NCBI GenBank assembly: GCA_963699725.1
Contig: CAVOVA010000007.1
Span: 29,108 to 93,107, forward strand
DNA: 64,000 bases
Reading direction: 5' to 3'
Source: an uncultured Thermoleophilia bacterium
GTDB taxonomy: Bacteria; Actinomycetota; Thermoleophilia; UBA2241
Positions 5,338 to 41,988 of the stretch are shown piece after piece. The notes under the pieces are model-generated. The model searched no databases and had not been told where the DNA came from. It saw only the letters and a program-made list of their open reading frames with translations. The stretch's first letter is position 1. Every line of letters begins with the position of its first letter. Position numbers and translations under genes: made by a program.

Positions 5338-6864
5338 TCACGCGGCTCCGTGGCCCAGCAGCGCCGCCGGCACCGTGCGCAGGCACAGCGAAGCGTCCAC
5401 CAGACTGTCGCGTGAACAGTCGTACAGAATGTCCTGGAACACCATGTCGTCGAAGCTGACGCGGCTCCGCCCGTCCACCTGCCACACACCGGTGATGCCG
5501 GGCTTCACCTCCAGCCGACGACGGTGCCAGGGCTGGTAGGCGGCGACCTCGTAGGGAAGCGGGGGCCGTGGCCCCACGAGGCTCATATCGCCGATGAACA
5601 CGTTCCAGAGCTGCGGCAGCTCGTCGAGCGAGTAGCGCCGCAGCAGGCGACCGACGCCCGTGATGCGCGGGTCGTCGACCAGCTTGAAGACTTCCTCTTC
5701 CTCGCCGTCGACCGATTGCGTGCTGGTCTCCGCCTCGCCGTTGATGAGCGCGTGCATGTAGTCGCAGTGCGCCGACGTGTCGGCGCCGTTCTGCATGGTC
5801 CGGAACTTGTAGAACTTGAAGGCCCGGCCGTCGAGGCCGATACGCTCCTGGGCGTAGAGCACCGGGCCGCGAGACGTGATCTTGACCGCTACGGCGATAG
5901 CCAGCATCAGCGGGGAGAGCACGAGCAGCGCGCCGGCTGAGACGACGATGTCGAAGGTGCGCTTGACCGGAGCTCGGCGGTGCCCGCCCGGGCTGCGGTG
6001 CGTGCGCACCACCGGCGCCTCGAAGAGGTCGACCAGCAGGCGCCGGCCGGTCAGCGGGCGCAGGCGGTTCGAGACGACGTACACCGAGGCTCCGGAGCGC
6101 TGGCCGGCGGTGATGAGGTCGAGCGTCTGGGTGAGCGTGAGACTGCCGGCGTCGATGAAGAGCGCGCCGAAAGCCGGGCGGCCGGCATCCGTGCGCTTGC
6201 GCAGGTGCTCGTTGACGCTCGCGACCACTCGCTGATCCCTGCCGCCATCGACGAGGGTCATGCGGTTGAAGCCCTTGAGCATCGTGAGGCGTTCGCGCAG
6301 CGGTTCGGTACGGTACGGCCAGCCGACGACCAGGGTGCGGCCCATGTCTTCCCTGAACCGCCGGCCCAGGACGCGCGTAAGCACCACGGTGCGCACCAGT
6401 GCAGCGAAGAGGAAGAAGAGGGTGAACGTGCCGACGACGGTGATACGGGACTGAAACCCGATGGGCAGGTGCAGCAGGTACACGACCAGGGCGCTGATGG
6501 CGGCCGACCAGAGCATGGCCTTGGCCAGCGTGAGCAGGTGCAGAGCGCGCAGCGAGAGCAATTCGCGTTGGTACAGACCCATGGCCCAGAAGACGATGAA
6601 GGTGATCGCCAGCGGCACCAGCATGGACCAGTTGGGAGTAGAGGCCACTGCCCCGTTGGGCCCGATGACCTCGCCGCGGACCATCAGGGCGAGCCCGTAG
6701 GCGATGAGTCCGAAGCACAGGTCGGTGAAGAGGTACCAGCGTGCCGGGTGGAGGCGCGCGGGCACGGCGGACGCGGCTTCGCGCCCGACCGCAACGAGGC
6801 GACGTTCGACGACGGCGGCGTCAAACGATTGCTCCTGCCCGCTCGGCACCCTCATCGCCGTCAT
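5338..6864 (-). CDS. Polyprenyl-phosphate hexose-1-phosphate transferase (WbaP/EpsB-type initiating sugar transferase)
   Basis: It has N-terminal TM helices and a C-terminal bacterial sugar transferase domain (KRTFDIVVS...KFRTM...DELPQLWNV..GDMSLVGPRP...KPGITGVWQV). Confidence 0.85.
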   Translation of the reverse strand: MTAMRVPSGQEQSFDAAVVERRLVAVGREAASAVPARLHPARWYLFTDLCFGLIAYGLALMVRGEVIGPNGAVASTPNWSMLVPLAITFIVFWAMGLYQRELLSLRALHLLTLAKAMLWSAAISALVVYLLHLPIGFQSRITVVGTFTLFFLFAALVRTVVLTRVLGRRFREDMGRTLVVGWPYRTEPLRERLTMLKGFNRMTLVDGGRDQRVVASVNEHLRKRTDAGRPAFGALFIDAGSLTLTQTLDLITAGQRSGASVYVVSNRLRPLTGRRLLVDLFEAPVVRTHRSPGGHRRAPVKRTFDIVVSAGALLVLSPLMLAIAVAVKITSRGPVLYAQERIGLDGRAFKFYKFRTMQNGADTSAHCDYMHALINGEAETSTQSVDGEEEEVFKLVDDPRITGVGRLLRRYSLDELPQLWNVFIGDMSLVGPRPPLPYEVAAYQPWHRRRLEVKPGITGVWQVDGRSRVSFDDMVFQDILYDCSRDSLVDASLCLRTVPAALLGHGAA

Positions 6865-6907
6865 GGCTCGACCCCCCCTCTTCGCTCGTCAGCATCCCGG
6901 CGCCAGG

Positions 6908-8011
6908 TCAGGCAAGTGCCTGCTCCAGCGTCGCGACGACGTAGTTTCTTTGTGCTTGATCGATCTCCGGATACATGGGGAGCGACAAGATGCGCTCTGC
7001 CCGGCGTTCCGCGATCGGGAAGTCGCCCACGCCATAGCCCAGCCCCTGGTAGGCGGGCTGCACGTGCAACGGTACCGGGTAGTGTATCCCGGATTCGACG
7101 CCCCGCTCTCCGAGTCGCTGGCGCACCCCGTCCCTGTCGTCGACCATCACCACGTACAGGTGGTAGACGGCCTCGCTTGCCTCACTCCTATCCGTCACCC
7201 ACACCCCGTGCCTTCCCACCAGCGCCGCATCGTAGTCCGTCGCCGCGAGGCGCCGCGCCTGGTTCCACGCCGCCAGGTGCGGCAGCTTGACCAGCAGCAG
7301 AGCGGCCTGCAGATTGTGCAGGCGGTCGCAGTGGCCGACCACCCGGTGCGTGTACTTGTCCTCCTGCCCGTGGTTGCGGTACAGGCGCACCGTCTCGGCG
7401 GCCGCGGGGTCGCTCGTGGTGACGGCGCCGCCGTCGCCCAGCGCCCCGAGGTTCTTGCCCGGATAGAAGCTGAACGCGGCGGTTTGGCCCATCGAACCTG
7501 CCGGCCGGCCCTTGTAGGTGGCGCCGTGCGCCTGGCAGGCGTCTTCGACGACCGCCAGGCCGTGAGCCGTGGCGACCTCGGCGAGCGCGTCCATGTCCAC
7601 AGGCTGCCCGTACAGGTGCACGGGCACGACCGCGGTGGTGCGCGGCGTGACCGCGGGCCCGACGGCAGCGGTGTCCATGAGACCGTTGCTCTCGAGGCAG
7701 TCCACGAAGACCGGCGTGGCGCCGACGTGGCTCACGGCCTCGGCGGTGGCGATGAAGGTGTTGGCCGGCACGATGACCTCGTCGCCGGGACGCACTCCGG
7801 CGGCGATCAGCGCGAGCTTGACGGCGTCGGTACCCGAGCTCACCCCGACCGCGTGGCTGCAGCCGCAGAAGGCCGCGAAGGCCTCTTCGAACTGCGTGAG
7901 TTCGGGGCCCATGGTGTAGGCGGCGCGCTCGGTGATGGAGCGGAAGGCGGCGTCGAACTCGGCCCGCAACTCAACGGCCTGTTTCTTGAGGTCGACGAAC
8001 GGCACGTGCAT
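6908..8011 (-). CDS. DegT/DnrJ/EryC1/StrS-family PLP-dependent sugar aminotransferase (WbpE-like)
   Basis: MHVPFVDLKKQ...GCSHAVGVSSGTDAVKLAL...SFYPGKNLGALGDGGAV are signatures of the sugar aminotransferase family. ATG 8011 is preferred over the track start at 8062. Confidence 0.85.
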   Translation of the reverse strand: MHVPFVDLKKQAVELRAEFDAAFRSITERAAYTMGPELTQFEEAFAAFCGCSHAVGVSSGTDAVKLALIAAGVRPGDEVIVPANTFIATAEAVSHVGATPVFVDCLESNGLMDTAAVGPAVTPRTTAVVPVHLYGQPVDMDALAEVATAHGLAVVEDACQAHGATYKGRPAGSMGQTAAFSFYPGKNLGALGDGGAVTTSDPAAAETVRLYRNHGQEDKYTHRVVGHCDRLHNLQAALLLVKLPHLAAWNQARRLAATDYDAALVGRHGVWVTDRSEASEAVYHLYVVMVDDRDGVRQRLGERGVESGIHYPVPLHVQPAYQGLGYGVGDFPIAERRAERILSLPMYPEIDQAQRNYVVATLEQALA

Positions 8012-8397
8012 GGTCGCCAGTCCGTCGCCCCGGTGCTCGGTAGTGGCGCCCGCAAAGCCCACTTCATGCCCCCGGAATGGCTGGTCTACGCGCCCAAGAC
8101 TACCCCCCCATGAAGACGGCTAAAAGGGGTAGATGCGCCTATGAGTTGCCACCGTTGACGACGTTGGCCGTCCAATTCGTCACCGCAGCACCCTCCTTCG
8201 AGGCTGAGCGGGACGCGCGACGTCGTTTCGAGCCTGCGGGCACTCAAGCGTAGCCAGAAATGGCAACAGTAGCGCGTGCACTGCCAGCGCATCCGCGTCC
8301 CCGATGCGCGGCGCGCAAGAGCCGGACGACAGGGTCGCGGTGTTCCCCGGGATGCCGCGCGCCAGAGCAGGCGACGCGACGGCCTTCACCCCTCGAT

Positions 8398-28887: not shown

Positions 28888-29771
28888 ACCACGTCCGCGA
28901 AGGTGCGTTCCATGCGCTTGAAGTAGAACAGCCCTCCGATCAGCAACGCCAGCACCACCACGACGGAGATGGCCATCGTGTAGCTCGGTGGCTGTTCACC
29001 GAGGATCGCCCAGCGGAAGCCCTGGATCACGCCGACCATGGGGTTCAGCGAATACAGCGTGCGAAGGATCCCTTCAGGCACCTTGTCCACCGGGTAGATC
29101 ACCGGACTGAGGTACATCAGGAGCTGGACGAGGAAGGGAACGATGTACTGAATGTCGCGATAGAGGACGTTGAGCGCGGCGAGCCAGAGCGACACCGCCA
29201 GCGCCGTGGCCAGACAGAACAACGTGAGCAGCGGCAGCCACACCATCGTCCAGGCGTAGGGTACGCCGAAGATCGCCATGAGGACCAGCAGCATCACGAA
29301 CGCGATGACGAAGTCGACGACACCCGCGAAGATGCTCGAGATCGGGATGACGAGCCGGGGGAAGTACACCTTGGTCAGGAGATTCGCCCTCGCCACCAGG
29401 CTGACGCTCGCGCGATTGATACCCCCGGCGAAGAGGTTCCAGGGCAGCAGAGCAGTGTAGCTGAAGACGGCGTACGGTACGTCACTGCCCGACTGGACGC
29501 CGAGGAGCATGCCGAAGACCAGGGTGAACACGACCATGGTGACCAATGGATTCAGCACCGCCCAGGCCACGCCGAGGACGGCCTGCTTGTAGCGGACGAG
29601 CACATCGCGCCAGGAGAGGAAGAAGAGCAGCTCGCGGTAGCGCCACAGCTCGCCCAGCTCCAACGCCGACCACCCCGTCCGGGGTCTGATCACCACACCC
29701 GGGCGCTTCGGTGTGGGCGTGTATGCGGCGGGTGTGTCGGTCGGCACGTCCACGTCCGACGCCCTACTCAC
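28884..29771 (-). CDS. wzm: ABC-2 type polysaccharide exporter permease
   Basis: The protein is 295 aa with six hydrophobic helices and the N-terminal LWRYRELLFFLSWRDVLVRYKQAVLGVAWAVLNP motif typical of Wzm/TagG permeases. It overlaps wzt. Confidence 0.8.
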   Translation of the reverse strand: MSRASDVDVPTDTPAAYTPTPKRPGVVIRPRTGWSALELGELWRYRELLFFLSWRDVLVRYKQAVLGVAWAVLNPLVTMVVFTLVFGMLLGVQSGSDVPYAVFSYTALLPWNLFAGGINRASVSLVARANLLTKVYFPRLVIPISSIFAGVVDFVIAFVMLLVLMAIFGVPYAWTMVWLPLLTLFCLATALAVSLWLAALNVLYRDIQYIVPFLVQLLMYLSPVIYPVDKVPEGILRTLYSLNPMVGVIQGFRWAILGEQPPSYTMAISVVVVLALLIGGLFYFKRMERTFADVV

Positions 29772-30756
29772 GAAGCGCCCGCATCCAGTCGTACTCCGCC
29801 GAGAGGCCCTCGAGAAGGCCGACGGCGGGAGCGTAGTCGATGAGCTCGCGCGCCCTCGTCAGGTCGGCCCAGGTGTCCTGGACGTCGCCGGCCTGCTTCG
29901 CCTCGACACGGATGTCCGGCCGCGTCCCGGCCACGTCCCCGAGCATGTCGAGCACGTGAGTGAGCGACACGCGGGACCCGCCGCCCACGTTCAGCACGCT
30001 GCCGGGCGGTGCGGCGCCGGCACGAACGAGGGCCTCGACGATGTCGGCGACGAACGTGAAGTCACGCGTCTGGCCACCGTCGCCGTACACGACCAGCGGC
30101 TCGCCGGCGAGAAGCGCGCGGAGGAAGATGTTGAACGCCATGTCTGGCCGCTGTCGCGGGCCGTAGACGGTGAAGAAGCGCAGCGACACCGTCGGCACGC
30201 CGCGGCACGTCCAGTAGAGCTGCGCGAGATGCTCGCCGGCGAGCTTGGTCACTCCGTACGGCGAGATCGGCCGGCAGACCGCGTCCTCTTGCAGGGGCAG
30301 CGTGGGGCTGTCACCGTACACGGACGACGAACTGGCATAGATGACCCGCTCGACCGCGGACTCACGACACGCCTCGAGCACGAGTTGCGTGGCGAGCACG
30401 TTGTTCTCCGCATAGACGCGAAAGCTCTGACCCCAGCTCGCCCGCACTCCCGCCTGGGCGGCCAGATGATAGACCCGGTCGCATCCCCGGACCAGCTCTT
30501 CGAGCCTCGTCGCGCCGTCGCTGCCCGCCTCGGTCGCCAGCGAGTGGACATCAGTCTCGACGAACGTGTACCGGGGGTCGGCGAGGGCGAGGGTCAGATT
30601 GGCCTCTTTGAGCGCGCGCGGATAGTAGTCCTCGAACGAATCCACGCCCACCACCTGGGCGCCGTCGCGCAGAAGACGCTCCACAAGATGAGACCCGATG
30701 AAGCCGGCCGCGCCGGTGACCAGCACGCGCGATCCGGAGAGATCCACTGAATCCAT
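29764..30756 (-). CDS. NAD-dependent nucleotide-sugar epimerase/dehydratase (extended SDR)
   Basis: VLVTGAAGFIGSHLVERLL (GxxGxxG) and the SSSSVYG...Y..TK catalytic motif are present. ATG 30756 was verified. It is the first gene of the minus-strand exporter operon. Confidence 0.85.
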   Translation of the reverse strand: MDSVDLSGSRVLVTGAAGFIGSHLVERLLRDGAQVVGVDSFEDYYPRALKEANLTLALADPRYTFVETDVHSLATEAGSDGATRLEELVRGCDRVYHLAAQAGVRASWGQSFRVYAENNVLATQLVLEACRESAVERVIYASSSSVYGDSPTLPLQEDAVCRPISPYGVTKLAGEHLAQLYWTCRGVPTVSLRFFTVYGPRQRPDMAFNIFLRALLAGEPLVVYGDGGQTRDFTFVADIVEALVRAGAAPPGSVLNVGGGSRVSLTHVLDMLGDVAGTRPDIRVEAKQAGDVQDTWADLTRARELIDYAPAVGLLEGLSAEYDWMRALRE

Positions 30757-30987
30757 CACTGCCCACAGCCCCGTCGATCGTTGCCCGCAGGCCCCGTCGG
30801 GTGCCTGTCCGAGGAGTCGGCCACGACGACACGCCTCAGCCGACCCGACTCGCCGACATTGTACCAGCCCGCTGCCCTCGCTGAGCCGGCTCGCGACACC
30901 CTGTGTAGACATCCACGGCAACGCGCGCTCCTGCCGAGCAGGCCGGCCACAGGTATCATGTGCGGGCGGCAAGCCTCGGGAGGGCGG
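30757..30987. promoter_or_regulatory. Divergent intergenic region between the ABC-exporter operon and the AsnB-like array
   Basis: Inferred from gene geometry only. Confidence 0.3.
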
Positions 30988-32727
30988 ATGTCCGGACTCA
31001 TAGCTGTCTGCGTGCGCGACGCGGCGACCGATGGTCGTCTCCGCGACGTCCTCGAGGGCTGCGCCCGCCGCCTCTCACCTGACAACATCTCTCCCCGCCC
31101 CCCCTCGACCATGCTGTCGCCGGGTATCGGGTTCGCTGTGACGAACCCTGCTCCGGGCCTCTCTCTCGACGCCAACGGCGTCTGCCTGGGAGCCGTACAG
31201 GACGACCCGGCGACCTGGTCGCGCGTGGCGTCGCCGGTCCCCGACGGTTCCTACGTACTTCTTCGGCACAGCGACGATGCCCTTGAGCTGATCAGCGACG
31301 CGCTGGCGTCGCGGACGGTCTGGTACGTTCACACCGCCGAACTCTTCCTCGCCTCGACGTCCCAGCGGGCCCTCGTCTCTCTTCTCGGCGACTTTCAGCC
31401 AGATCGTGCGGCAGTGCTCTGGATGGCCACGTCGGGAACGCTGGGGCCATCGGCCTCGTGGGATCGCCGATTGAGCAGACTCCCGGGGGCGTCGACGCTG
31501 CGGCTCGATCGCCGGTCGTGGCGCCTGGACGTCACCAGCGAGCCGGTGACGTTCGAACCGGCGCGCCGCAGCGACGAGGAGCACGTCGCCGAACTGGGTG
31601 CGGCGATCCTCGACTCCTGCGCCGACCTGCACGTCGATCTGGCGGACTGGGTCCTGCCTCTATCGGGGGGGATGGACAGCCGGGCGCTTCTTCTGGCCCT
31701 TCTTGAGACGGGGAGGCGCCCGCGCTGCGTCACCTGGGGCCTGCGCAGCGCCGTCACGGATCCCGCCAACGACGCGGCCGTCGCCAGAGTGCTCGCCGAC
31801 ACGACGGGCGTGGAACACCTCTACTACCCCACCGACCACTCGGAGGAGGACGTCGGCGCGGTCCTGGATCGCTTCCTGGTCGCCGGCGAGGGACGCAGCG
31901 AGGACTTCGCCGGGTACACCGACGGCCTCGCCACGTGGAAGCAGCTCTTCGAATCCGGCGTCGCAGGCGTCATTCGCGGTGACGAGCCGGGGTGGGGATA
32001 CCGCACCTATCACTCCGAGAGCTACGCCCGGCGCCGCGTCCACCTCCGAGTCCTCGCCGACTACCCCCCCTCCCATCTCATCCATCAGCTGGGACTGGAA
32101 CCGCAGCCAGTCCCGTCCCAGCTGACGCGCCACGAGCGGGAGAGCCTCACGACCTACCGTGACCGGATCTACGAAGCCTATAATCTCCCCACCTTCTTCG
32201 CCGCCCTGAACGACGTCAAGACGCCATACGTGGAGATCGCCAATCCCTTCCTCACCCGCAGGGTCGTGAGCGTCGTGCGCTCGCTACCGGACCATCTCCG
32301 CGAACATCGCCGCGCATTCGCCGCCTTCGTCCGCGCCTACGGACCCGATGTGCCCTTCGCCACCAAGGCGGCGCCGGCCGAGCCCAGCGAGTACCTGGCG
32401 CGCCCGGGTCTGGTCACCGAGGTTCGGGAAGAGCTCGAGTCGAGCCGGGCGGAGAGTGTGCTGGACCGGGGCGCCCTCGATCGCCTCTGCGCCGCTCTCG
32501 ACGCCTCCCCGAGGTTCGACGCACGGCGCGGGCTGCGAGCGGCCGCACGCAAGGTGATCCCCGACGAGCTCGCGCGCCGGCTGCGACCGAACGCGGCCAT
32601 CCTTCTGAGTGCACGCGAGCTCGCCTTTCGCGTCTGCATCGCGAGCCGCATGGCGACGATGCTCACCGCCGACGCCGCGGCGAGCCCCGCATGGCGGGGC
32701 TCGGAGACGCGGCCGGAGGGCCACTGA
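30988..32727 (+). CDS. Asparagine synthetase B-like adenylating enzyme, paralogue 1 (no N-terminal Cys nucleophile)
   Basis: ATG 30988 follows GGGAGGG. The N-terminal domain has an Ntn-amidotransferase-like pattern (DGSYVLLRHSDDALELISDALASRTVWY...LASTSQRALV). The PP-loop LSGGMDSRALL is intact. The protein starts MSGL, not MCG. Confidence 0.75.
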   Translation: MSGLIAVCVRDAATDGRLRDVLEGCARRLSPDNISPRPPSTMLSPGIGFAVTNPAPGLSLDANGVCLGAVQDDPATWSRVASPVPDGSYVLLRHSDDALELISDALASRTVWYVHTAELFLASTSQRALVSLLGDFQPDRAAVLWMATSGTLGPSASWDRRLSRLPGASTLRLDRRSWRLDVTSEPVTFEPARRSDEEHVAELGAAILDSCADLHVDLADWVLPLSGGMDSRALLLALLETGRRPRCVTWGLRSAVTDPANDAAVARVLADTTGVEHLYYPTDHSEEDVGAVLDRFLVAGEGRSEDFAGYTDGLATWKQLFESGVAGVIRGDEPGWGYRTYHSESYARRRVHLRVLADYPPSHLIHQLGLEPQPVPSQLTRHERESLTTYRDRIYEAYNLPTFFAALNDVKTPYVEIANPFLTRRVVSVVRSLPDHLREHRRAFAAFVRAYGPDVPFATKAAPAEPSEYLARPGLVTEVREELESSRAESVLDRGALDRLCAALDASPRFDARRGLRAAARKVIPDELARRLRPNAAILLSARELAFRVCIASRMATMLTADAAASPAWRGSETRPEGH

Positions 32728-33737
32728 TGTCCGGGCTGATCGTCGCCTGCGCGCGTCCGGGGACCGAGCTGCCCTACTCGGCCGACGATCTGCGGCGCTG
32801 CGCCGCCCGCCTCTCGCCCGACAACCTCACCCCGCACGCCCCGCGGCTGCTGGCGGACCCGGGGCTGATCGCCGCCGTGGTCAACCCCATGCCCGACCTC
32901 CCGCGCGCGCCGGGCGCGGTCTGCCTCGGCGGGCTCGTCGGCGCCCACGACGGCTGGGACGCCACCGGGTCGCGGCGACCGGACGGCTCCTACGCCATCT
33001 GCCGCTTCGACGCCGAGCGCCTGGAGCTGGTGACCGACAACCTCGCCTCCAGGGCGCTGTGGTACGTGCTCCGCGGCGACGTCCTGCTCGCCTCCACCTC
33101 GCAGCGGGCGCTGGTCTGCCTGCTCGGCGACCTGCGCCTCAACGACGCCGCCGTCGCCTGGCTGGCCTCGAGCGGCACCCTGGGGCCCGACAACGCCTGG
33201 GACACGCGGCTGCGCCGGGTGCCGGCGGCGACGGTGCTCTCGCTCGACCGCCGCGCCTGGACCCTGAAGCAAGCCACGGAGTCGCTCGAGCACGAGCCCG
33301 AGCCGCTCCCGGACGCGGTCCATCTGCAGCGCTGGCGCGAGGCCATCCTCGAGACCTGCGCGGAGCTCGACGTCTCCCTCGACACCTGGCTCCTGCCGCT
33401 CTCCGGCGGCCTCGACAGCCGCACGCTGCTCGCCGCCCTCGTCGCCGGCGGGCGCCGCCCGCGCTGCGTCACCTGGGGCCTGCGCCGCTCGCTCGAGGAC
33501 CCCGAGAGCGACAGCGTCGTGGCGCGACGTCTGGCCGCGTACTACGGGGTCGACCACTCGTTCTTCGCGACCGACCCCGGCGACGAGCCGCCGCGCGTGC
33601 TGATCGACCGCTTCCTCGTCGCCGGCGAGGGGCGCACGGACCAGATCGCCGGCTACCTCGACGGGCTCGCCATCTGGAAGACGCTGTTCGACGAGGGCGT
33701 GACCGGGGTCATCCGGGGCGACGAGCCGGGGTGGGGC
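32639..33737 (+). repeat. Direct repeat copy A (1,099 bp; 3' end of paralogue 1 plus 5' 1,011 nt of paralogue 2)
   Basis: Compared by eye and through identical translations in three frames with 34378-35476. The offset is 1,739 bp. One mismatch was found (33452 G versus 35191 C, synonymous). Confidence 0.9.
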
Positions 33738-34466
33738 GAGGACGCCTGTTTCTCCGCGTCCGACGTTCGACGCGGCAACCGCATCGAGGCGATCTCCGAC
33801 TTCCCGTCGGGGCACCTCATCCGGCAGCTGGGACTCGCACGGCAGCCGCTGCCGGGATGGGTCGGGCAGCGGCCCGGTGAAAGCCTCGTCCTCTACGACT
33901 GCAGGCTGACCAGCAGCTACGAGTTCCCTCTCGATCTCGGCCCTCTCAACGACATCAAGTGCGCCTACGTCGAGGTCGCCAACCCGTTCCTCGGCGACCG
34001 GGTGGTGCGGATGATGCGCGCCCTCCCGGAACATCTTCGCCGAGAACGAAAAGGGTTCACTGCCGTGGTGGACCGTCTCGGCCCTCCCATACCGGCTGCG
34101 AAGCGCTCGGCGCTCGCGGGTTTGACGCCGGCCCTGCACGGCCCGCCCTTCCTCGATGAGATGCTCACCGAGCTGGCGTCGAGCGACGCAGAGCGCATCT
34201 GCGAGCGACGCGCACTCGACCTGGTCGCCGACGATCTCCGGCGCGTGAGGCCGACGTCGGCGAGCCGCAGTCTGCGTCACGCCGCGCGTACCGTCATGCC
34301 CCGACGCGTCAGGGCGTCCCTCAGGCTGAGTCCGAAGGCGAGTCTCGCCACCGCGCGCCTGGCGTTCCGGCTCGTGCTCGCGAGCCGCATGGCGACGATG
34401 CTCACCGCCGACGCCGCGGCGAGCCCCGCATGGCGGGGCTCGGAGACGCGGCCGGAGGGCCACTGA
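32727..34466 (+). CDS. Asparagine synthetase B-like adenylating enzyme, paralogue 2 (Cys-less)
   Basis: It overlaps paralogue 1 by TGATG and starts MSGLIVAC. The PP-loop is LSGGLDSRTLL. The first 337 codons are identical to paralogue 3. Confidence 0.75.
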   Translation: MSGLIVACARPGTELPYSADDLRRCAARLSPDNLTPHAPRLLADPGLIAAVVNPMPDLPRAPGAVCLGGLVGAHDGWDATGSRRPDGSYAICRFDAERLELVTDNLASRALWYVLRGDVLLASTSQRALVCLLGDLRLNDAAVAWLASSGTLGPDNAWDTRLRRVPAATVLSLDRRAWTLKQATESLEHEPEPLPDAVHLQRWREAILETCAELDVSLDTWLLPLSGGLDSRTLLAALVAGGRRPRCVTWGLRRSLEDPESDSVVARRLAAYYGVDHSFFATDPGDEPPRVLIDRFLVAGEGRTDQIAGYLDGLAIWKTLFDEGVTGVIRGDEPGWGEDACFSASDVRRGNRIEAISDFPSGHLIRQLGLARQPLPGWVGQRPGESLVLYDCRLTSSYEFPLDLGPLNDIKCAYVEVANPFLGDRVVRMMRALPEHLRRERKGFTAVVDRLGPPIPAAKRSALAGLTPALHGPPFLDEMLTELASSDAERICERRALDLVADDLRRVRPTSASRSLRHAARTVMPRRVRASLRLSPKASLATARLAFRLVLASRMATMLTADAAASPAWRGSETRPEGH

Positions 34467-35476
34467 TGTCCGGGCTGATCGTCGCCTGCGCGCGTCCGGG
34501 GACCGAGCTGCCCTACTCGGCCGACGATCTGCGGCGCTGCGCCGCCCGCCTCTCGCCCGACAACCTCACCCCGCACGCCCCGCGGCTGCTGGCGGACCCG
34601 GGGCTGATCGCCGCCGTGGTCAACCCCATGCCCGACCTCCCGCGCGCGCCGGGCGCGGTCTGCCTCGGCGGGCTCGTCGGCGCCCACGACGGCTGGGACG
34701 CCACCGGGTCGCGGCGACCGGACGGCTCCTACGCCATCTGCCGCTTCGACGCCGAGCGCCTGGAGCTGGTGACCGACAACCTCGCCTCCAGGGCGCTGTG
34801 GTACGTGCTCCGCGGCGACGTCCTGCTCGCCTCCACCTCGCAGCGGGCGCTGGTCTGCCTGCTCGGCGACCTGCGCCTCAACGACGCCGCCGTCGCCTGG
34901 CTGGCCTCGAGCGGCACCCTGGGGCCCGACAACGCCTGGGACACGCGGCTGCGCCGGGTGCCGGCGGCGACGGTGCTCTCGCTCGACCGCCGCGCCTGGA
35001 CCCTGAAGCAAGCCACGGAGTCGCTCGAGCACGAGCCCGAGCCGCTCCCGGACGCGGTCCATCTGCAGCGCTGGCGCGAGGCCATCCTCGAGACCTGCGC
35101 GGAGCTCGACGTCTCCCTCGACACCTGGCTCCTGCCGCTCTCCGGCGGCCTCGACAGCCGCACGCTGCTCGCCGCCCTCGTCGCCGGCGGCCGCCGCCCG
35201 CGCTGCGTCACCTGGGGCCTGCGCCGCTCGCTCGAGGACCCCGAGAGCGACAGCGTCGTGGCGCGACGTCTGGCCGCGTACTACGGGGTCGACCACTCGT
35301 TCTTCGCGACCGACCCCGGCGACGAGCCGCCGCGCGTGCTGATCGACCGCTTCCTCGTCGCCGGCGAGGGGCGCACGGACCAGATCGCCGGCTACCTCGA
35401 CGGGCTCGCCATCTGGAAGACGCTGTTCGACGAGGGCGTGACCGGGGTCATCCGGGGCGACGAGCCGGGGTGGGGC
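34378..35476 (+). repeat. Direct repeat copy B (3' end of paralogue 2 plus 5' 1,011 nt of paralogue 3)
   Basis: See copy A. Identity breaks at 34377/34378 and at 35476/35477. Confidence 0.9.
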
Positions 35477-36217
35477 TACAGTGCCGTCCACTCGGAGACG
35501 TACGTGAGGCGCAGAGCGCACTTCGAAACGGTTCCGGACTACCCGCCGAACCATCTGATCCGGCATCTCGGACTCGCGCCTCAACCCGTTCCGGACTGGA
35601 CGCGGAGGCGGGCCGGCGAGTCACTCGTCCACTTGCGGAACCGGCTCTACGAACGTCACTCGCTCCCCGTGCACCTGTCTCCGCTCAACGACGTCAAGTG
35701 CGCCTACGTCGAGATCGTCAACCCGTTCCTCGGCGATCGCGTCGTCAGAGTCGCCCGAGAGCTTCCGGAGAAGCTCAGCAGTCAACGTGACGGCTACAAA
35801 GCAGTGGTATCCGCGCTCGGTCCCGACGTGCCGACGGCCAAGCACTCGGCGCTCGTCGGCTCAAGCCGGCTGCTGTCGTCCAGCCAGGCCGTCATCGAGG
35901 AGCTTCGCAGAGAGCTGTCGTCGACCGACGCCGACAGGATCTGTGAGCGACGGGGCCTCGATCGCGTCGTCGCCGGGCTCCGCAAGCCGGGATCCGCTCC
36001 AGCGCGCCGGCGCCTCAGAAACGGCGTCCGCGCCGTGGTGCCCAGACGAGTGAGGGTGCTCGTCAATCCGGATCCAGCGTTGACCCTCTCCACCTTCGGC
36101 TTGGCTCTGAGGCTGCACATGGCCAGCCGGATGGCCGCCATGCTGACTGCCGACGCAGCCGCCCTGCGCGCTCGAAACGGTGTGCCTAGTCCACCGCCCC
36201 ACGCGACCGGCGCCTGA
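34466..36217 (+). CDS. Asparagine synthetase B-like adenylating enzyme, paralogue 3 (Cys-less)
   Basis: It overlaps paralogue 2 by TGATG. The N-terminal 337 aa are identical to paralogue 2, and the remainder is divergent. The PP-loop is LSGGLDSRTLL. Confidence 0.75.
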   Translation: MSGLIVACARPGTELPYSADDLRRCAARLSPDNLTPHAPRLLADPGLIAAVVNPMPDLPRAPGAVCLGGLVGAHDGWDATGSRRPDGSYAICRFDAERLELVTDNLASRALWYVLRGDVLLASTSQRALVCLLGDLRLNDAAVAWLASSGTLGPDNAWDTRLRRVPAATVLSLDRRAWTLKQATESLEHEPEPLPDAVHLQRWREAILETCAELDVSLDTWLLPLSGGLDSRTLLAALVAGGRRPRCVTWGLRRSLEDPESDSVVARRLAAYYGVDHSFFATDPGDEPPRVLIDRFLVAGEGRTDQIAGYLDGLAIWKTLFDEGVTGVIRGDEPGWGYSAVHSETYVRRRAHFETVPDYPPNHLIRHLGLAPQPVPDWTRRRAGESLVHLRNRLYERHSLPVHLSPLNDVKCAYVEIVNPFLGDRVVRVARELPEKLSSQRDGYKAVVSALGPDVPTAKHSALVGSSRLLSSSQAVIEELRRELSSTDADRICERRGLDRVVAGLRKPGSAPARRRLRNGVRAVVPRRVRVLVNPDPALTLSTFGLALRLHMASRMAAMLTADAAALRARNGVPSPPPHATGA

Positions 36218-37385
36218 GGCGGCGGCGCAGCGCAGTCGAGACGGAGCCGACGAGCGGCGCCGGATCATCGAATGCGATCACGGCATCGCTGCGGATGCGC
36301 GCCAGAGGCGCGAGCCAGTCGCCCAGGCCGAGCTGCCCCGCTCGCCACTCGTTCATCGAGTCCCTGGCCTCCCGCAGCAGATCACTCCACGCGACTCCAT
36401 CCACCTGCCGCGGCCGCTCGATGACTTCGCCGGCGGCATCGCGATAGGCGATCTCGCTCAGATTGACGCCCGCCGCCGTCGCAAGACCCGCCCACAGGCC
36501 GTGGCGAGCGTTGATCTCGATGAACTTGAGGCGGCCGTCTCTCGCGTCGCGCTTGAACTCCACATCAGAGACACCTCGATAGCGGAGATGCCCGAGGAGC
36601 TGGAGCGTGGCCTCCGCGACCTCGTCGGACCATCGGCTCTCCGCGAGGCGGGTGTTGCCGAAGCCGCGCGGATGCTGCCGCAGCTTGCGCCCGGTGAACA
36701 CCGCGAGCGGGCGACTGGCGGCGTCGTGGTAGGTCGCGGCGAAGTAGACATCGTCATCGCCGCCGGGGACGATCTCCTGGAGCATGAGGGGCCCGCATCC
36801 CCGGACGCGCCGGCAGGCGAGCTCCAGGTCTTCGCGGGATTCCACGACCAGGAGCTTGAGTCCCAGGGCGCGCTTGAACGCGAGCGGGACCGCGGGCTTG
36901 AGTACGGCCGGATAGACCATCGCCGCGGACACGGACTCGAGATCCTCCGCGGAGCGAAGGAACGCTGTCGCCGGCGTGGCCAGACCGGCCTGCTCGGCTG
37001 CCCGCACCTGGTGCTCCTTGTCGGCCAGGTGCCGCATCGCTTCCCAGCGACAGACGGGCAACGTGAAGGTCCCGTCCAGCCGCGCCGCCTGTCGCGAAAC
37101 GCTGGCCACGAAATCGTCCTGTGCCGGCAGGACGACGGTACCTCCAGGGAGCCGGGTCGAGAGCGCGAGCATGTCGTCGACGAAGCCGTCTTCGTCGTAG
37201 TGCGGATCGGCGCAGCGCACCGCGTGCGCGTATCGCGAGGCGAAACCGAGCGCATCGGTCTGGCAGTCGACGGCCACGACCGGCACACCCAGCCTGCCCA
37301 GATCGCGTACGACGGTGAGACCCGTGCCGTTGCTCACCCCGAGCACGACAGCAGGGCGGAGGCCACCCCGCCCGTGGCGGGCCAT
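36186..37385 (-). CDS. ATP-grasp domain carboxylate-amine ligase-like protein
   Basis: PAVVLGVSNGTGLTVVRDLGRLGVPVVAVD is a pre-ATP-grasp Rossmann-like N-terminus. It is followed by YPAVLKPA, MLQEIVPGGDD and the SDVEFKRDARDGRLKFIEINAR core. The start is uncertain (ATG 37385 preferred; 37502 and 37634 are also open). Its 3' end overlaps paralogue 3 by 32 nt, convergently. Confidence 0.7.
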   Translation of the reverse strand: MARHGRGGLRPAVVLGVSNGTGLTVVRDLGRLGVPVVAVDCQTDALGFASRYAHAVRCADPHYDEDGFVDDMLALSTRLPGGTVVLPAQDDFVASVSRQAARLDGTFTLPVCRWEAMRHLADKEHQVRAAEQAGLATPATAFLRSAEDLESVSAAMVYPAVLKPAVPLAFKRALGLKLLVVESREDLELACRRVRGCGPLMLQEIVPGGDDDVYFAATYHDAASRPLAVFTGRKLRQHPRGFGNTRLAESRWSDEVAEATLQLLGHLRYRGVSDVEFKRDARDGRLKFIEINARHGLWAGLATAAGVNLSEIAYRDAAGEVIERPRQVDGVAWSDLLREARDSMNEWRAGQLGLGDWLAPLARIRSDAVIAFDDPAPLVGSVSTALRRRLRRRSRGAVD

Positions 37386-37738
37386 ACGACCGTTCACGAT
37401 CGTGACCACGATGTGACGAGATCTTCCATAGGGACGCCTCCGCGCCGGCTTGTGCAGCACGTCGACGGCCCATCGCCCGGCCCGGCGTCCGCACGCGGTC
37501 ATCCATCCGGCTGTGGCCGTAGAGTACGCTATCTCCCCCTCCACGGTCACGCGGCGGGACGCGTGCTGCGCCGCCTCAGGACCCTCGACGGCGACCGGCG
37601 CCCCGCTGCTGCCGCGCGGCCGCCGTTGGCTCACGGTCGCACCCGGGGCACGGCCGGCCGCAACGGGCTCTGGACCATCCTTGACCGCGACGCGGCCTTG
37701 TCACCACACTTACGCGACACAGCCGAAGGAGCCATCTC
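37386..37738. promoter_or_regulatory. Divergent intergenic region between the ATP-grasp gene and AsnB-like paralogue 4
   Basis: Inferred from gene geometry. A strong GAAGGAG lies 7 nt before ATG 37739. The extent depends on the ATP-grasp start. Confidence 0.3.
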
Positions 37739-39538
37739 ATGGCCGACGTGATCATCGCCTGCCCTCGCAGCGGTTCCCAAGCAGGCGCGGCGGAGCGCCT
37801 GCGGAATGCAGCCCTGCGCCTCGCGCCGCCGGAGTTGCCGACCCGCGAGCCACTGCTGCTCGAGTCCGGCGGCGTCGTAGCCGCCGTCGCGAACCCGACG
37901 GAAGAGGGCGTGTGGCTCCACGACGGCCGTGAAGACGCCACGGTGCGCGGCGCGGTGTGTGTCGGCGGCCTCTTCGGCACGCCCGGAGCATGGTGGCTGC
38001 CGGGTTCGGAAGCCCCTGACGGCACTTACGCACTGGCCAGGTGGGACGCGCGCACGGTCGAGCTCGTCGCCGACACGTGCGCCACTCGCACGCTCTGGTA
38101 CACGGTCTCGGAGGACGGCTTCTTCGCCTCCACATCGCAGCGGGCACTGGTCACTCTGCTCGGTGGCTTCGACCTGCTGCCGGAGGCCGTCGCCTGCTTC
38201 CTCTCCACCGGCACGCTGGGGCCGGACGCTTCGTGGGATGCGCGCATACGCCGCGTGCCGCCGGACGCGCTCGCCGTACTGGACCGCGCGGCCTGGCGCG
38301 TCTCGGTCCACGAGTCCACCTGGCAGTTCACACCTCTTCCCGGCGACGATCGCGCTCAAGTCGCCCGTCTCCGGGACGCCATCGCCGCCACCTGCGGCTC
38401 CCTCAACGTCGACCTCGAGCGATGGGTCCTCGCTCTCTCGGGCGGGTGCGACAGCCGTGCCCTGCTCGCCTTTCTGGTCCAGAACGGGCTCCGCCCGCGC
38501 TGCGTCACCTGGACGACGCGTGCTTCGCTGCGCAAGCCCCTCTCCGACGCTTCGATCGCCCGGCACCTCTGCCGCCGCTACCACGTCGAGCACGAACTGC
38601 TGTTTCTCGATGACGGCCCCGACCTGGATACCACAGTGTCGCGCTTCGTCGCCGCCGACGAGGGGCGCAACGACGAGATCGCGGGCTACCTCGACGGATT
38701 CGCGCTCTGGCGCGGTCTCGTTGCGAAGGGCGCCGAAGGACTCATCAGGGGAGATGAGTCGTTCGGCCCACGGTCGCGCCCGATGGCCGCGGAGAGCGGC
38801 CGAAGGCAGGTCGGGGGCGCAACGCCGGCCGACTATCCCGAGAGCCATCTCCTGCGCAGTCTCGGGCTGGTCGAGCCGACGTGGCCGCAGCGCCTCCAGA
38901 GAACCGAAGGGGAAGACCTCCGCGACTACCGAGCGCGCATCAGCCAGCAGGGCTTCGTGCCCATCGTCCTCGCAGGGCTCAACGGCCCGAAGGCCCGCTA
39001 CCTCGAGATCGTCAATCCTCTGCTGTCCCGAGCGGTGATGGGCGCCGTCCGCGCGTTGCCCACGGAGATGCGAGAGTACTCCCGGGCGTTCGGGAAGATC
39101 GTCGACGGGCTCGACCGCACGGTGCCGTATGCGCGATCCTCCTCCACAAGATCACCCTCGGACCTCTTCGCCTCGCACGAGTTCGCGGACGTCGTCGTCC
39201 GTGAGCTCACCTCGGGGGACATCGAGCGTGTGCTGCCCGGAGACGCCGCCCTCCGCGTGCTCGCTTCACTGACCGTGCCGAGGGCCGGCCCGACTGGTCC
39301 GAAGGCACGTACGAAGGCTCTCCTGAAGAGAGTCGGCGTCGCCCTCCCGATCCGCCTGACCGACCGCATCCACCCCCGCTACTTCGGGCCGAATCGTCTG
39401 TCTCCGGCGAAGCTCGCCTGGCGAGCCCTCCTGGCCAGCCGGACCATCTCGTTGCTGGAAGACGATGCCGGAGCCCTCGCTCGGTCTGGAGGCGCGACGG
39501 CGCTCCCGGGACCCAGGAGTCCGAGCGCACCCCGCTGA
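37739..39538 (+). CDS. Asparagine synthetase B-like adenylating enzyme, paralogue 4 (Cys-less, most divergent)
   Basis: It starts MADVIIAC after GAAGGAG. DGTYALARWDARTVELVADTCATRTLWY...FASTSQRALV is present, and the PP-loop is LSGGCDSRALL. It is collinear with paralogues 1-3 over the full length. Confidence 0.75.
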   Translation: MADVIIACPRSGSQAGAAERLRNAALRLAPPELPTREPLLLESGGVVAAVANPTEEGVWLHDGREDATVRGAVCVGGLFGTPGAWWLPGSEAPDGTYALARWDARTVELVADTCATRTLWYTVSEDGFFASTSQRALVTLLGGFDLLPEAVACFLSTGTLGPDASWDARIRRVPPDALAVLDRAAWRVSVHESTWQFTPLPGDDRAQVARLRDAIAATCGSLNVDLERWVLALSGGCDSRALLAFLVQNGLRPRCVTWTTRASLRKPLSDASIARHLCRRYHVEHELLFLDDGPDLDTTVSRFVAADEGRNDEIAGYLDGFALWRGLVAKGAEGLIRGDESFGPRSRPMAAESGRRQVGGATPADYPESHLLRSLGLVEPTWPQRLQRTEGEDLRDYRARISQQGFVPIVLAGLNGPKARYLEIVNPLLSRAVMGAVRALPTEMREYSRAFGKIVDGLDRTVPYARSSSTRSPSDLFASHEFADVVVRELTSGDIERVLPGDAALRVLASLTVPRAGPTGPKARTKALLKRVGVALPIRLTDRIHPRYFGPNRLSPAKLAWRALLASRTISLLEDDAGALARSGGATALPGPRSPSAPR

Positions 39539-39546
39539 CCAGAAGA

Positions 39547-39699
39547 TCAGGAGGGGGCGCCCAGCACGAAGACCACCGCCAGGCCGACGAGGAAGACGAG
39601 CATGCCGGCTTCCACGACAAGCCCGCGGCGGCGGGCCTCGTCGTCGCTGCTGCCCGGCCGTACCGCGCCTGGACGGTCCGTGCCCCGTGTCGCTCTCAT
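39547..39699 (-). CDS. Small (50 aa) single-pass membrane protein, hypothetical
   Basis: ATG 39699 is preceded by CAGGAGG with a 6-nt spacer. GC3 is high throughout. The C-terminal hydrophobic helix is GLVVEAGMLVFLVGLAVVFVLG. No homology was recognised. Confidence 0.45.
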   Translation of the reverse strand: MRATRGTDRPGAVRPGSSDDEARRRGLVVEAGMLVFLVGLAVVFVLGAPS

Positions 39700-39848: not shown

Positions 39849-41000
39849 CTAGGGTGCCTCGCCGCGAACCAGGGCGAGCAGCGCGTCGACGAGCTGTCCC
39901 TCAGGCAGCGTCTCGACGCGCTCGCCGTGGTCGAAGAGCACGCCCTCCCCCGCGCCGGCGGCGATGCCGTAGTCGGCGTGACGGGCTTCCTCCGGGCCGT
40001 TGACGCGGCAGCCCATGACGGCGACGCTGATGACGCGGCCGGCGAGGGCCGGATCCGCGCCGAGACGTCGCTCGACCTCTTCGGCCAGCCCCACGATGTC
40101 GACTTCCGTGCGCCCGCACGTCGGGCACGAGATGACCTCAGGACCGCGGCGCCGGAGGCCCACTGCGGCGAGGATCTGCCAGGCGACCCTCACTTCCTCG
40201 ACCGGGTCGCCGGTCAGGCTCACGCGGATGGTGTCGCCGATGCCGTCGGCCAGCAGGGCGCCGATGCCGACGGCGCTCTTGATAGTCCCGCTCCACACGG
40301 TGCCGGCCTCCGTCACGCCGACGTGCAGCGGCGCCTCCGTCTTCTCGGAGAGCAGCCGGTAGGCTGCGATCGTGTCCGGTACCGACGACGACTTCACGCT
40401 CAGCTTGTAGGCGCTGAAGCCCCACTCCTCGAACTGGTCCGCCCAGCGCAGCGCGGCCTCCACGAGCGCGCCGGGAGTGTCCGTTGCCGCGCGCTCGCGC
40501 AGGTCGCGCGGCAGCGACCCGGCGTTGACGCCGACGCGGATCGCCACGGGCACGTCGCCCTCGCCCGGACCGGCGGGCACCCGGGCCCCTGCCGCCGCGG
40601 CCACGATCTCGCGCACGTGCTTCTCGTTCATCGTCCCCGGGTTGATGCGCACGCCCGCGGCGCCGGCCTCGATCGCCGCCACGGCCAGACGCCAGTCGTA
40701 GTGGACGTCGGCGATGATGGGCACGCGAGGAGCGTCGCCGGTCCCGATCGCGGCCGCCGGCTCCCGGCCCGCGAGCCCCGGTGCCTCGCGCACCACACGC
40801 GCGAACGCCGGGGCTTCCTCAGCCGTCGGCAGGCTCACGCGCACGATCTCGCAGCCGGCGGCGACGAGGGCGCGCACCTGGGCCAGCGTCGCCTCCGCGT
40901 CGCCCGTGCGCGTGCACGTCATGGACTGCACGGCGACGGGAGCGCCGCCACCGACGGGCACGGCGCCCACCAGGACGCGGCGTGCGCTAGGCACGGGCAT
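39849..41000 (-). CDS. ispG: 4-hydroxy-3-methylbut-2-en-1-yl diphosphate synthase (MEP pathway)
   Basis: VGGGAPVAVQSMT, CEIVRVS, IIADVHYD, GVRINPGT, IRVGVNAGSL, ISCPTCGRT and AVMGCRVNGPGE-like motifs are collinear with GcpE/IspG. ATG 41000 was verified. Confidence 0.9.
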   Translation of the reverse strand: MPVPSARRVLVGAVPVGGGAPVAVQSMTCTRTGDAEATLAQVRALVAAGCEIVRVSLPTAEEAPAFARVVREAPGLAGREPAAAIGTGDAPRVPIIADVHYDWRLAVAAIEAGAAGVRINPGTMNEKHVREIVAAAAGARVPAGPGEGDVPVAIRVGVNAGSLPRDLRERAATDTPGALVEAALRWADQFEEWGFSAYKLSVKSSSVPDTIAAYRLLSEKTEAPLHVGVTEAGTVWSGTIKSAVGIGALLADGIGDTIRVSLTGDPVEEVRVAWQILAAVGLRRRGPEVISCPTCGRTEVDIVGLAEEVERRLGADPALAGRVISVAVMGCRVNGPEEARHADYGIAAGAGEGVLFDHGERVETLPEGQLVDALLALVRGEAP

Positions 41001-41988
41001 CCCCGAGCGGCGGCGCCTGCTCCGCGGGCCCGCCGGCGCCGGAGAACCACGCCCAAGTCTCGGCGAGGCCGTCACCCAGCGTCGTCCCTGCCTCCCAGCC
41101 CAGCACCCAGCGCGCACGGCCGGCGTCCGCCCGCGAGTGGCGGATGTCGCCGGCGCGCGCGCCCTCGATCCGCCGTTCGAGTGACCTGCCGGCGAGGTCC
41201 TCGACAACGCTGATGATCTGCAGCAGGTCGGTCTCACGTCCGCTGCCGACGTTGAGCACGGAAGTCCCGGTCAGCGGCCGCCGCAGCGCGGCGAGCACGG
41301 CGGCCACGACGTCGGCGACGTACACGAAGTCACGCGTCTGCCGTCCATCGCCGTAGATAGTGACGGCGTGACCGGCTGCCGCGGCGGCCAGGAAGCGGCT
41401 GATGACGCCCGAGTAGGCGGAGCCGGGGTCCTGCCGCGGCCCGTACACGTTGAAGAAGCGCAGGCAGACGGCGGTGATCTGCCCGGCGTCCGCCGCCTCG
41501 GCGCAGACCTCTTCAGCGGCAAGCTTGGCGCCGGCGTACGGGCTGAGCGGACGGGCTGGGCCGGCCTCGGCGATGGGCATCTCTGCCGCGTCGCCGTACA
41601 CGGCGCAGCTCGAGGCCAGCACGAACCGGTCCGCGCCCGCCTCCACGGCCTGGCGCAGCACGTTGACGGTGCCCCCGTGGGTGACGGAGTCGCAGCCCAC
41701 GGGGTCTTCCACGGACTGCGCGACCGAAGGGACGGCGGCGAGATGGACGACCGAGGAGCAGCCGTCGACGGCGTCGCGCATGCGCACTTCGTCGCGGACG
41801 TCCCCGGCCAGCACCTGCAGCCCGGCGTCGTGCTCCGCAGCCAGACGCCAGGCGCCGTCGAGGTTCTCTTCCCTGCCCGTGCTGAAGTCGTCGACGACGC
41901 GCACATCGGAGCCGCTCGCGAGCAGGGCGTCCACGACGTGCGAACCGATGAACCCGGCGCCGCCGGTGACCAGGGAGAGATCGTTCAT
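40987..41988 (-). CDS. NAD-dependent nucleotide-sugar epimerase/dehydratase (GalE-like extended SDR)
   Basis: LVTGGAGFIGSHVVDALL, SSCAVYG and Y..AK motifs are present. The stop overlaps the ispG start by 14 nt. Confidence 0.85.
   Translation of the reverse strand: MNDLSLVTGGAGFIGSHVVDALLASGSDVRVVDDFSTGREENLDGAWRLAAEHDAGLQVLAGDVRDEVRMRDAVDGCSSVVHLAAVPSVAQSVEDPVGCDSVTHGGTVNVLRQAVEAGADRFVLASSCAVYGDAAEMPIAEAGPARPLSPYAGAKLAAEEVCAEAADAGQITAVCLRFFNVYGPRQDPGSAYSGVISRFLAAAAAGHAVTIYGDGRQTRDFVYVADVVAAVLAALRRPLTGTSVLNVGSGRETDLLQIISVVEDLAGRSLERRIEGARAGDIRHSRADAGRARWVLGWEAGTTLGDGLAETWAWFSGAGGPAEQAPPLGDARA

Follow-up and report, generated by a model that had tools for sequence, protein, structure and literature searches.

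Gene conversion keeps duplicated bacterial genes such as tufA/tufB and the rRNA operons evolving in concert. Here we describe a probable case in an uncultured Thermoleophilia bacterium, an inhabitant of soil, found in a 64,000-nucleotide stretch of DNA (hereafter the window; assembly GCA_963699725.1, contig CAVOVA010000007.1, positions 29,108 to 93,107 of the forward strand), in which two adjacent genes of a tandem array encoding AsnB-like proteins share a 1,099-bp direct repeat. We put the probability at roughly three in four that this repeat is a domain-limited gene-conversion tract between neighbouring tandem genes that has undergone long-running concerted evolution. A survey of recurrent gene conversion in bacteria reported 26 genes (Wang & Chen 2018, PMC6053082), and a text search of that survey for ‘asparagine’ returned no mention.

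As in the surveyed cases (PMC6053082), the paralogues are closer to each other within a genome than to their orthologues, their synonymous sites are homogenised, several lineages show the pattern, and it is attributed to ongoing homologous recombination. Unlike in those cases, homogenisation is confined to 337 of about 580 codons and to 89 nt of the gene before them, the remainder being deeply diverged, and the copies lie in tandem, 640 bp apart, in a variable glycan locus and are not genes for core complexes. Segmental conversion that preserves one domain while another diverges has been described for the mammalian Toll-like receptors TLR1 and TLR6 (PMC2077338). The two systems have in common tandem paralogues, a sharply limited conversion domain and a divergent region thought to differ in function; the present locus differs from it in being bacterial and operonic, with copy-number variants apparently mediated by the same tract. 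Deletion between tandem paralogues formed chimeric genes in Escherichia coli evolution experiments (PMC13626634), and two related arrays that hold types 1 and 3 only (L022 and L031, see below) look as though recombination of this sort between paralogues had taken out the intervening DNA. Unlike there, the recombining stretches are already identical here, so that a deletion through the tract would yield no new chimera and would merely remove the C-terminal part of gene 2. Programmed variation cassettes (pilE/pilS, shufflons, diversity-generating retroelements) consist of silent partial cassettes or have a dedicated recombinase or reverse transcriptase beside the variable gene. The neighbours examined at 29.7-41.2 kb are sugar and ligase genes, and, unlike silent cassettes of the pilE/pilS type, both tract copies lie in what appear from their sequence to be complete, expressed-type genes with a ribosome-binding site. 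The process is a known one in a new gene family and setting, and the locus is a clear, not an unprecedented, example of concerted evolution.

Compared in register at an offset of 1,739 bp, the two copies of the repeat differ at a single site (Table 1). The mismatch falls on the third base of codon 242 of either gene (GGG versus GGC) and is synonymous, since both codons specify Gly. The initial annotation had described the repeat in these terms, and its further statements also hold: paralogues 1 and 2 end in the same 89 nt, and paralogues 2 and 3 agree throughout codons 1-337, counted from their MSGLI starts (32727 and 34466). Beyond the ends of the tract, identity between the units of paralogues 2 and 3 drops abruptly, to 46.5% over 200 nt on the upstream side and 56.5% over the same length downstream, and the matching stretch of paralogue 1 is only 59% identical to the tract. 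An identity of 1,099 nt far exceeds chance for paralogues that are otherwise 50-60% identical. The tract spans a gene boundary, as it takes in the tail of one gene together with the signals for starting translation and the N-terminal part (N-part) of the next, and it ends at motifs conserved in all paralogues, ASRMxxML on the 5' side and, where the break had been placed before, the GVIRGDEPGWG loop at about codon 337 on the 3' side. In the entire 3.24-Mb, 28-contig assembly it is found at just two sites, paralogues 1 and 4 giving weak matches (65-68%). Exact-sequence look-ups with paralogues 2 and 3 matched no further assembly. The first residue after the tract in paralogue 2, residue 338 (33738-33740), is Glu (GWG-E-DACF); Paralogue 1 and every other protein of types 2 and 3 have Tyr at this position (GWG-Y), which makes the Glu a private change of a conserved residue directly at the junction.

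Relatives were collected by protein search and followed to syntenic contigs, and 59 loci were fetched. According to GTDB records they are uncultured Thermoleophilia metagenome-assembled genomes (MAGs), Microflora Danica bins included. Below, W stands for the window, A for L020, B for L021, C for L022, D for L023, E for L024, F for L025, G for L026 and H for L028; types 1-5 are orthogroups of the C-terminal part (C-part), and W1 to W4 are paralogues 1 to 4. L020 and L021 are independent long-read style contigs of other Thermoleophilia species. In self-comparison, their units 2 and 3 each hold an own near-identical tract of about 1.1 kb. Self-BLAST found no near-identical tract in the 59 loci except in these two, and a genus-wide DNA scan of 54 genomes added no homogenised lineage (its close-match genomes G058 and G069 are apparently the sources of L025 and L028, judging from match identities and copy number). 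Counted from the start of the gene, the tract extends from -88 to 1011 in W and from -88 to 996 in A, each with one difference inside, and from about -103 to 1010 in B, with about three differences and a few more near the 5' end. The 5' boundary is the same nucleotide in W and A, and all boundaries fall within about 15 nt across the three lineages.

Within genomes the N-parts are 99.9% (W2-W3), 99.3% (A2-A3) and 99.6% (B2-B3) identical, as compared with about 87-95% between genomes; tract identity is about 88-89% for W-A, about 86.5-87.6% for W-B and about 94.5-95% for A-B. Maximum-likelihood trees (general time-reversible model with gamma-distributed rates, GTR+G; ultrafast bootstrap) group the N-parts by genome (W2+W3, 97; A2+A3, 98; B2+B3, 100) and the C-parts by type (W2 with A2 and B2 in a type-2 clade, 98-99; W3+C3, 100; A3+B3, 99). 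The approximately unbiased (AU) test rejected orthologous grouping of the N-part (difference in log likelihood 602, p = 0.0004) and by-genome grouping of the C-part (707, p = 2e-9). Independent duplication is excluded by the ordinary orthology of the adjacent C-parts. Nonsynonymous (dN) and synonymous (dS) divergence, estimated by the Nei-Gojobori method for the two gene halves separately, follows the same division. For W2-W3, dN is 0 and dS 0.004 in the N-part, as against 0.43 and 0.95 in the C-part, in agreement with the earlier statement that the remaining roughly 240 codons have diverged; the N-part dS of A2-A3 is 0.015. Between W and A orthologues of types 2 and 3, dS is 0.23-0.24 in the N-part and 0.64-0.72 in the C-part. 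For type 1 (W1-A1) it is 0.56 in both.

Recent transfer of the tract between lineages was considered as well and rejected, as third-position G/C transversions are equal in tract and controls (W-A: tract 0.139, type 1 0.122, C-parts 0.113-0.155). The tract is thus as old as its flanks, and its copies must have been homogenised after speciation in each lineage. C3 differs from the W tract by 1.8% and the tract of L031 from that of A by about 2%; the copies inside W or A differ at one site. Since the same tract is 99.6-99.9% identical within each of three lineages yet 5-13% apart between them, concerted evolution has been running for long. The initial annotation had proposed a recent unequal crossover or gene conversion. 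Homologous recombination or conversion between tandem paralogues remains of that proposal, whereas a single recent event does not agree with three lineages, nor a simple unequal crossover, which would alter copy number, with the preserved 1,739-bp register. Outside the three homogenised arrays, in loci with no identical tract, dS between D2 and D3 is 0.38 in the N-part and 0.86 in the C-part, and between F2 and F3 0.55 and 1.07. Across L023, L024 and L025 the N-part dS is about half that of the C-part between types 2, 3 and 5, which suggests older, episodic conversions of the same module.

We infer a recombination mechanism with a single origin and self-limiting boundaries. One founding recombination in the common ancestor of the W genome, L020 and L021 would have replaced a stretch that begins 89 nt ahead of the stop codon of the upstream gene and reaches the GDEPGWG loop, near codon 337. 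The most conserved motifs, ASRMxxML and GVIRGDEPGWG, are where one would expect resolution of an exchange between paralogues that at the time shared about 80% identity. Because the boundaries are shared within 15 nt, a single founding event with conversion going on ever since is a more parsimonious account than three events that happened to coincide. RecA-type recombination between the copies 640 bp apart, for which 1.1 kb of perfectly matching sequence is an efficient substrate, would keep converting one by the other within a chromosome or between sisters, and new mutations in the tract would either be lost or spread into both copies. The flanks, which are 47-57% identical, would be too diverged for strand exchange, and this would keep the tract from spreading and its boundaries sharp; the C-parts of types 2 and 3 would persist as old modules, each conserved separately. 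Non-reciprocal conversion fits better than plain unequal crossover, as the register is intact. Unequal crossing-over by way of the same homology would delete the type-2 C-part (Table 1) together with one tract copy, leaving gene 1, tract and type-3 C-part, or would duplicate that unit.

The arrays of relatives vary in copy number and composition, in line with the earlier proposal that the array can expand, contract or shuffle. The window holds [1,2,3]-ATP-grasp-[4]. L020 and L021 have [1,2,3], L023 [1,5,3,4], L024 [1,2,5,3], L025 [1,2,5], L026 and L028 [1,2], L032 [1,5,3] and L031 [1,3], while L022 begins with a gene-1 tail followed by type 3. In L031, a long-read style contig, an A1-type gene is followed by a single tract (98% to A), an A3-type C-part and then the ATP-grasp gene; L022, 94.7% identical to W, has the gene-1 tail, a single tract and a type-3 C-part. 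The type-2 C-part is absent in both. By their gene order, L031 and L022 appear to be the deletion product expected from recombination between two tract copies, each beside a [1,2,3] relative. L022 is a 2.8-kb contig from the Joint Genome Institute (JGI), assumed to be short-read, that crosses the tract uninterrupted, for which a single tract copy in that genome would account more readily. A scan of the JGI metagenome with a single sequence found no type-2 C-part, and a profile scan of the sample from which L022 came found no close type-2 gene, although this search was limited by its pattern and lends weak support to a true [1,3]. Copy-number variation in the array is likely, not proven, to be real.

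The locus is also mosaic. Identity between A and B varies greatly from gene to gene, from 80% for A1-B1 to 95% for A2-B2 (range for A2-B2 and A3-B3, 89-95%), and B1 shares 94% identity with F1. The array is made up of segments that differ in their history. In L031, the type-1 gene (6252-8013) is 94-100% identical to A1 (L020:6517-8271) at nt 1-200 and from about nt 1000; between about nt 200 and 1000 it is 71-89% identical to A1 and matches no other sampled allele. It is an inter-lineage recombinant, with its 3' junction again near the GDEPGWG codons.

Several points weigh against conversion as the source of the repeat. The W genome is a draft MAG (87% completeness), and the two-copy arrangement here depends on its assembly. 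The exact mismatch counts in L020 and L021 are soft because these assemblies hold indel errors, and some of the tract differences in L021 are indels of the kind that long-read error produces. The assembler might conceivably have skipped a loop in the [1,3] contigs, and in the N-part tree the nodes that bear on the donor copy (type 2 or 3) and the direction of conversion have a support of 45-79. An artefact in this MAG would be a collapsed and re-expanded repeat, or [1,2] and [1,3] strains merged through the tract; a merge of such strains through the 89-nt tail is formally possible. The state of the draft (28 contigs, 4.7% contamination), a 1.1-kb exact repeat longer than short-read inserts and the existence of relatives with [1,3] variants would agree with it. 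Yet the same layout is seen in the independent contigs L020 and L021, nowhere does the assembly offer another N-part to which the type-2 C-part, which must have one, could belong, the two copies differ at one site, and the three open reading frames (ORFs) are intact, keep the invariant residues and share the 1,739-bp register with the diverged unit 1. L023, L024, L025 and L032, which belong to the same accession series (ERZ250395xx) as L020 and L021 and have contigs named alike, have paralogues 78-85% identical and no near-identical tract; coming from the same study series, they argue against a method artefact in L020 and L021. We consider an artefact improbable.

Repeated recombination that rebuilds [1,2,3] must also be counted as an alternative scenario. 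Here [1,2] and [1,3] haplotypes with a common N-part allele would be joined after DNA uptake, with the 89-nt tail and the downstream genes serving as homology, and the tract copies would be identical as recent conspecific alleles. Close relatives do include [1,2] (L026, L028), [1,3] (L022, L031) and [1,2,3] arrays, and the mosaic locus (A1-B1 against A2-B2, the foreign segment of L031) would suit it, but three lineages would each have had to undergo the same rare three-way event on their own and with matching boundaries, the tail of gene 2 must already equal that of gene 1, and the sampled [1,2] genomes (H, G) have N-parts 12-24% away from W; no suitable donor was seen among them. We give this scenario a small chance. 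That a single, very recent conversion or crossover private to this genome produced the repeat, the repeats of relatives being coincidental, would account for the one differing site; the presence of the tract in three lineages with boundaries within about 15 nt and the same 5' nucleotide in W and A, and C3 and L031, which show the tract sequence to be lineage-specific and older than the last homogenisation, leave it very little probability. Purifying selection alone, acting without recombination, could draw on the fact that the N-part contains the PP-loop core and is more conserved across the family than the C-part. It is refuted by the homogenised synonymous sites (dS 0.004 within the genome versus 0.23 between orthologues), and the tract moreover crosses a gene boundary; its probability is negligible. 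Concerted evolution by continuing conversion remains our preferred explanation.

The tract has an unusual base composition. Its G+C content at third codon positions (GC3) is 0.979, and that of the rest of the array 0.81-0.84. Among genome-wide windows of 337 codons (mean 0.896, standard deviation (sd) 0.064, 99th percentile 0.973), 0.4% reach 0.979. On the deep branches of the tract lineage, polarised third positions show 8 GC-to-AT changes versus 37 G/C transversions; the same count gives 38:24 for paralogue 1 and 42:16 for the C-parts (Fisher test versus the tract, p = 1e-5 and 4e-8). Per ancestral G/C site, GC-to-AT changes amount to 0.004 in the tract versus 0.088 in the control on the W branch and to 0.030 versus 0.12 on the A/B branch, while the G/C transversion rates are equal (0.075 versus 0.062 and 0.084 versus 0.069, respectively). 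GC-to-AT synonymous changes in the tract are 3- to 20-fold depleted relative to paralogue 1 and the C-parts of the same genomes, and this depletion explains the low dS of the tract. A within-gene statistic of the drop in GC3 was discarded, as it was contaminated by non-coding leaders of stop-to-stop ORFs.

The composition of the tract fits GC-biased conversion, which would leave G/C transversions unaffected, without proving it. In bacteria, GC-biased gene conversion is a hypothesis argued mainly from correlations (Lassalle et al. 2015, PMC4450053). Against such an origin of the bias stand the N-parts of E4, D3 and F2, which have a GC3 of 0.94-0.98 without an identical partner (Table 1). They weaken the link between high GC3 and present-day homogenisation and make the GC bias a property of the whole N-part lineage; codon selection or past conversion episodes may be its cause. 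It is possible, though we hold it to be rather doubtful, that the tract is a natural experiment for bacterial GC-biased conversion and at the same time a built-in recombination module through which a glycan-modifying enzyme is gained or lost ([1,3] versus [1,2,3]).

The AsnB-like proteins of the window are distant members of their superfamily. They pass Pfam PF00733 (Asn_synthase) narrowly, with 22.5-27.4 bits against a cutoff of 21, and their NCBIfam scores are far under all curated cutoffs. Membership of the lasso-peptide/macrolactam cyclase subfamily NF033561 was rejected, as their scores of 38-54 bits lie below its cutoff of 300; neither a precursor peptide nor a protease was seen among the neighbours, and the surrounding genes are glycan genes. 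In an alignment of 38 homologues the PP-loop motif SGGxDS is present as LPLSGGLDSR, with S226, G227, G228, D230 and S231 invariant. R330, G331 and G337 near the breakpoint are invariant too, and D332, K411, Y414 and E416 are conserved in at least 90%. W2 retains every family-invariant residue. GDEPGWGY would correspond to the SGEGSDE..GGY region of AsnB and K411 to AsnB K449. The N-terminal Cys nucleophile is absent from all four window paralogues (three begin with MSGLI and the fourth with MADVI; the family consensus is MAGLI), so that glutamine hydrolysis is unlikely.

An AlphaFold2 model of W3 (predicted local distance difference test, pLDDT, 91.3; predicted template-modelling score, pTM, 0.91) has a two-domain fold, N-terminal nucleophile (Ntn)-like plus synthetase. 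Its top Foldseek matches are TsnB9, beta-lactam synthetase, AsnB and carbapenam synthetase (CarA), with E values of 1e-18 to 1e-11, template-modelling (TM) scores of 0.5-0.63 and identities of 10-17%. A phmmer search of W3 against the PDB gave no match, and a profile search gave weak matches only. With the solved enzymes (TsnB9, 7ylz; beta-lactam synthetase, 1jgt and others; AsnB, 1ct9; carbapenam synthetase, 1q15) the family shares the two-domain fold, the PP-loop SGGxDS and a Lys/Glu motif in the C-part, NDVKCAYVE; unlike them, it lacks the N-terminal Cys, and sequence identity is 10-17%. In the model the tract ends just past strand 327-329, in a loop of lowered confidence (block 331-340), and the approximately 245 residues that follow form a largely helical C-terminal subdomain carrying the conserved NDVKCAYVE. 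The array proteins are probably adenylating, amide-forming enzymes that do not use glutamine, in which ATP would bind to the N-part and the substrate pocket would be formed mostly by the C-part, and the type-2 and type-3 C-parts would differ in substrate or acceptor role. That the C-part carries the functional difference had been suggested at the outset; old types, each orthologous across genomes, would fit separate functions.

The window is 70% G+C, and reading frames were for this reason chosen by codon-position G+C and family searches. A Wzm/Wzt-type ABC-2 exporter and glycosyltransferases lie upstream of the array and mark a cell-surface glycan locus. Paralogues 1, 2 and 3 each start with MSGLI after the ribosome-binding site (RBS) GGAGGG, and the starts of paralogues 2 and 3 overlap the preceding stop codon as TGATG. 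The 3' end of the ATP-grasp gene lies inside the last 32 nt of paralogue 3 (36186-36217), which leaves no space for a terminator between the two genes. Minus-strand ORFs at 32990-33472 and 34729-35211 were rejected as genes: their G+C content is lower at first than at second codon positions (GC1 < GC2), so that they are shadow frames of the GC3-rich gene. The plus-strand ORF 36180-37751 was rejected in favour of the minus-strand ATP-grasp gene on codon-position G+C and family searches. Apart from the tract, the AsnB-like/ATP-grasp array (29700-39600) has a GC3 of 0.81-0.85, about 1 sd under the genome mean, which hints at a compositionally distinct, possibly acquired segment.

Table 1 Coordinates of the array genes, of the putative conversion tract (R) and of related genes with high-GC3 N-parts; positions refer to the window unless a related locus is named.
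Feature	Position	Strand	Remarks
Short-chain dehydrogenase/reductase (SDR) sugar epimerase/dehydratase	29764-30972	-	divergent; left border of array
AsnB-like paralogue 1 (W1, type 1, 579 aa)	30988-32727	+	PF00733 and NCBIfam matches; only last 89 nt in tract
AsnB-like paralogue 2 (W2, 579 aa)	32727-34466	+	homogenised N-part and type-2 C-part
AsnB-like paralogue 3 (W3, 583 aa)	34466-36217	+	homogenised N-part and type-3 C-part (35477-36217)
Putative conversion tract R, copy 1	32639-33737	+	last 89 nt of paralogue 1, RBS GGAGGG, TGATG overlap, codons 1-337 of paralogue 2
Putative conversion tract R, copy 2	34378-35476	+	last 89 nt of paralogue 2, same RBS and start, codons 1-337 of paralogue 3
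Sole difference between copies	33452	+	G; counterpart 35191 is C
Unique type-2 C-part	33738-34377	+	spacer between tract copies; orthologous to A2, B2, F2, H2 and G2; would disappear in a tract-by-tract deletion
ATP-grasp ligase	36186-37634	-	convergent; context, outside tract
AsnB-like paralogue 4 (W4, type 4)	37739-39538	+	not homogenised
ispG	39849-41237	-	
Gene E4, with high-GC3 N-part without partner	L024:8001-9752		few G/C-versus-A/T (S/W) differences from the W tract
Gene D3, with high-GC3 N-part without partner	L023:8001-9788		few S/W differences from the W tract
Gene F2, with high-GC3 N-part without partner	L025:7406-9124		few S/W differences from the W tract

Tracts of this kind are traps for short-read assembly and for orthology and dN/dS pipelines. 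With its base composition the tract lends itself to an internally controlled test of whether conversion in bacteria is GC-biased (cf. PMC4450053), and if conversion does drive the GC bias, this would be evidence of an unusually direct kind, with its own internal controls, for a GC-ward bias of prokaryotic repair or conversion. For the biology of the family, the locus indicates that recombination can keep one module the same in a pair of bacterial enzyme genes even through speciation, with the other module evolving into distinct types that are themselves conserved. The helical C-terminal subdomain past the GDEPGWG loop is the likely specificity module of this uncharacterised, Cys-less AsnB-like family of glycan loci. 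The tract would account for the variation in gene number among close relatives, which should translate into diversity of their surface glycans.

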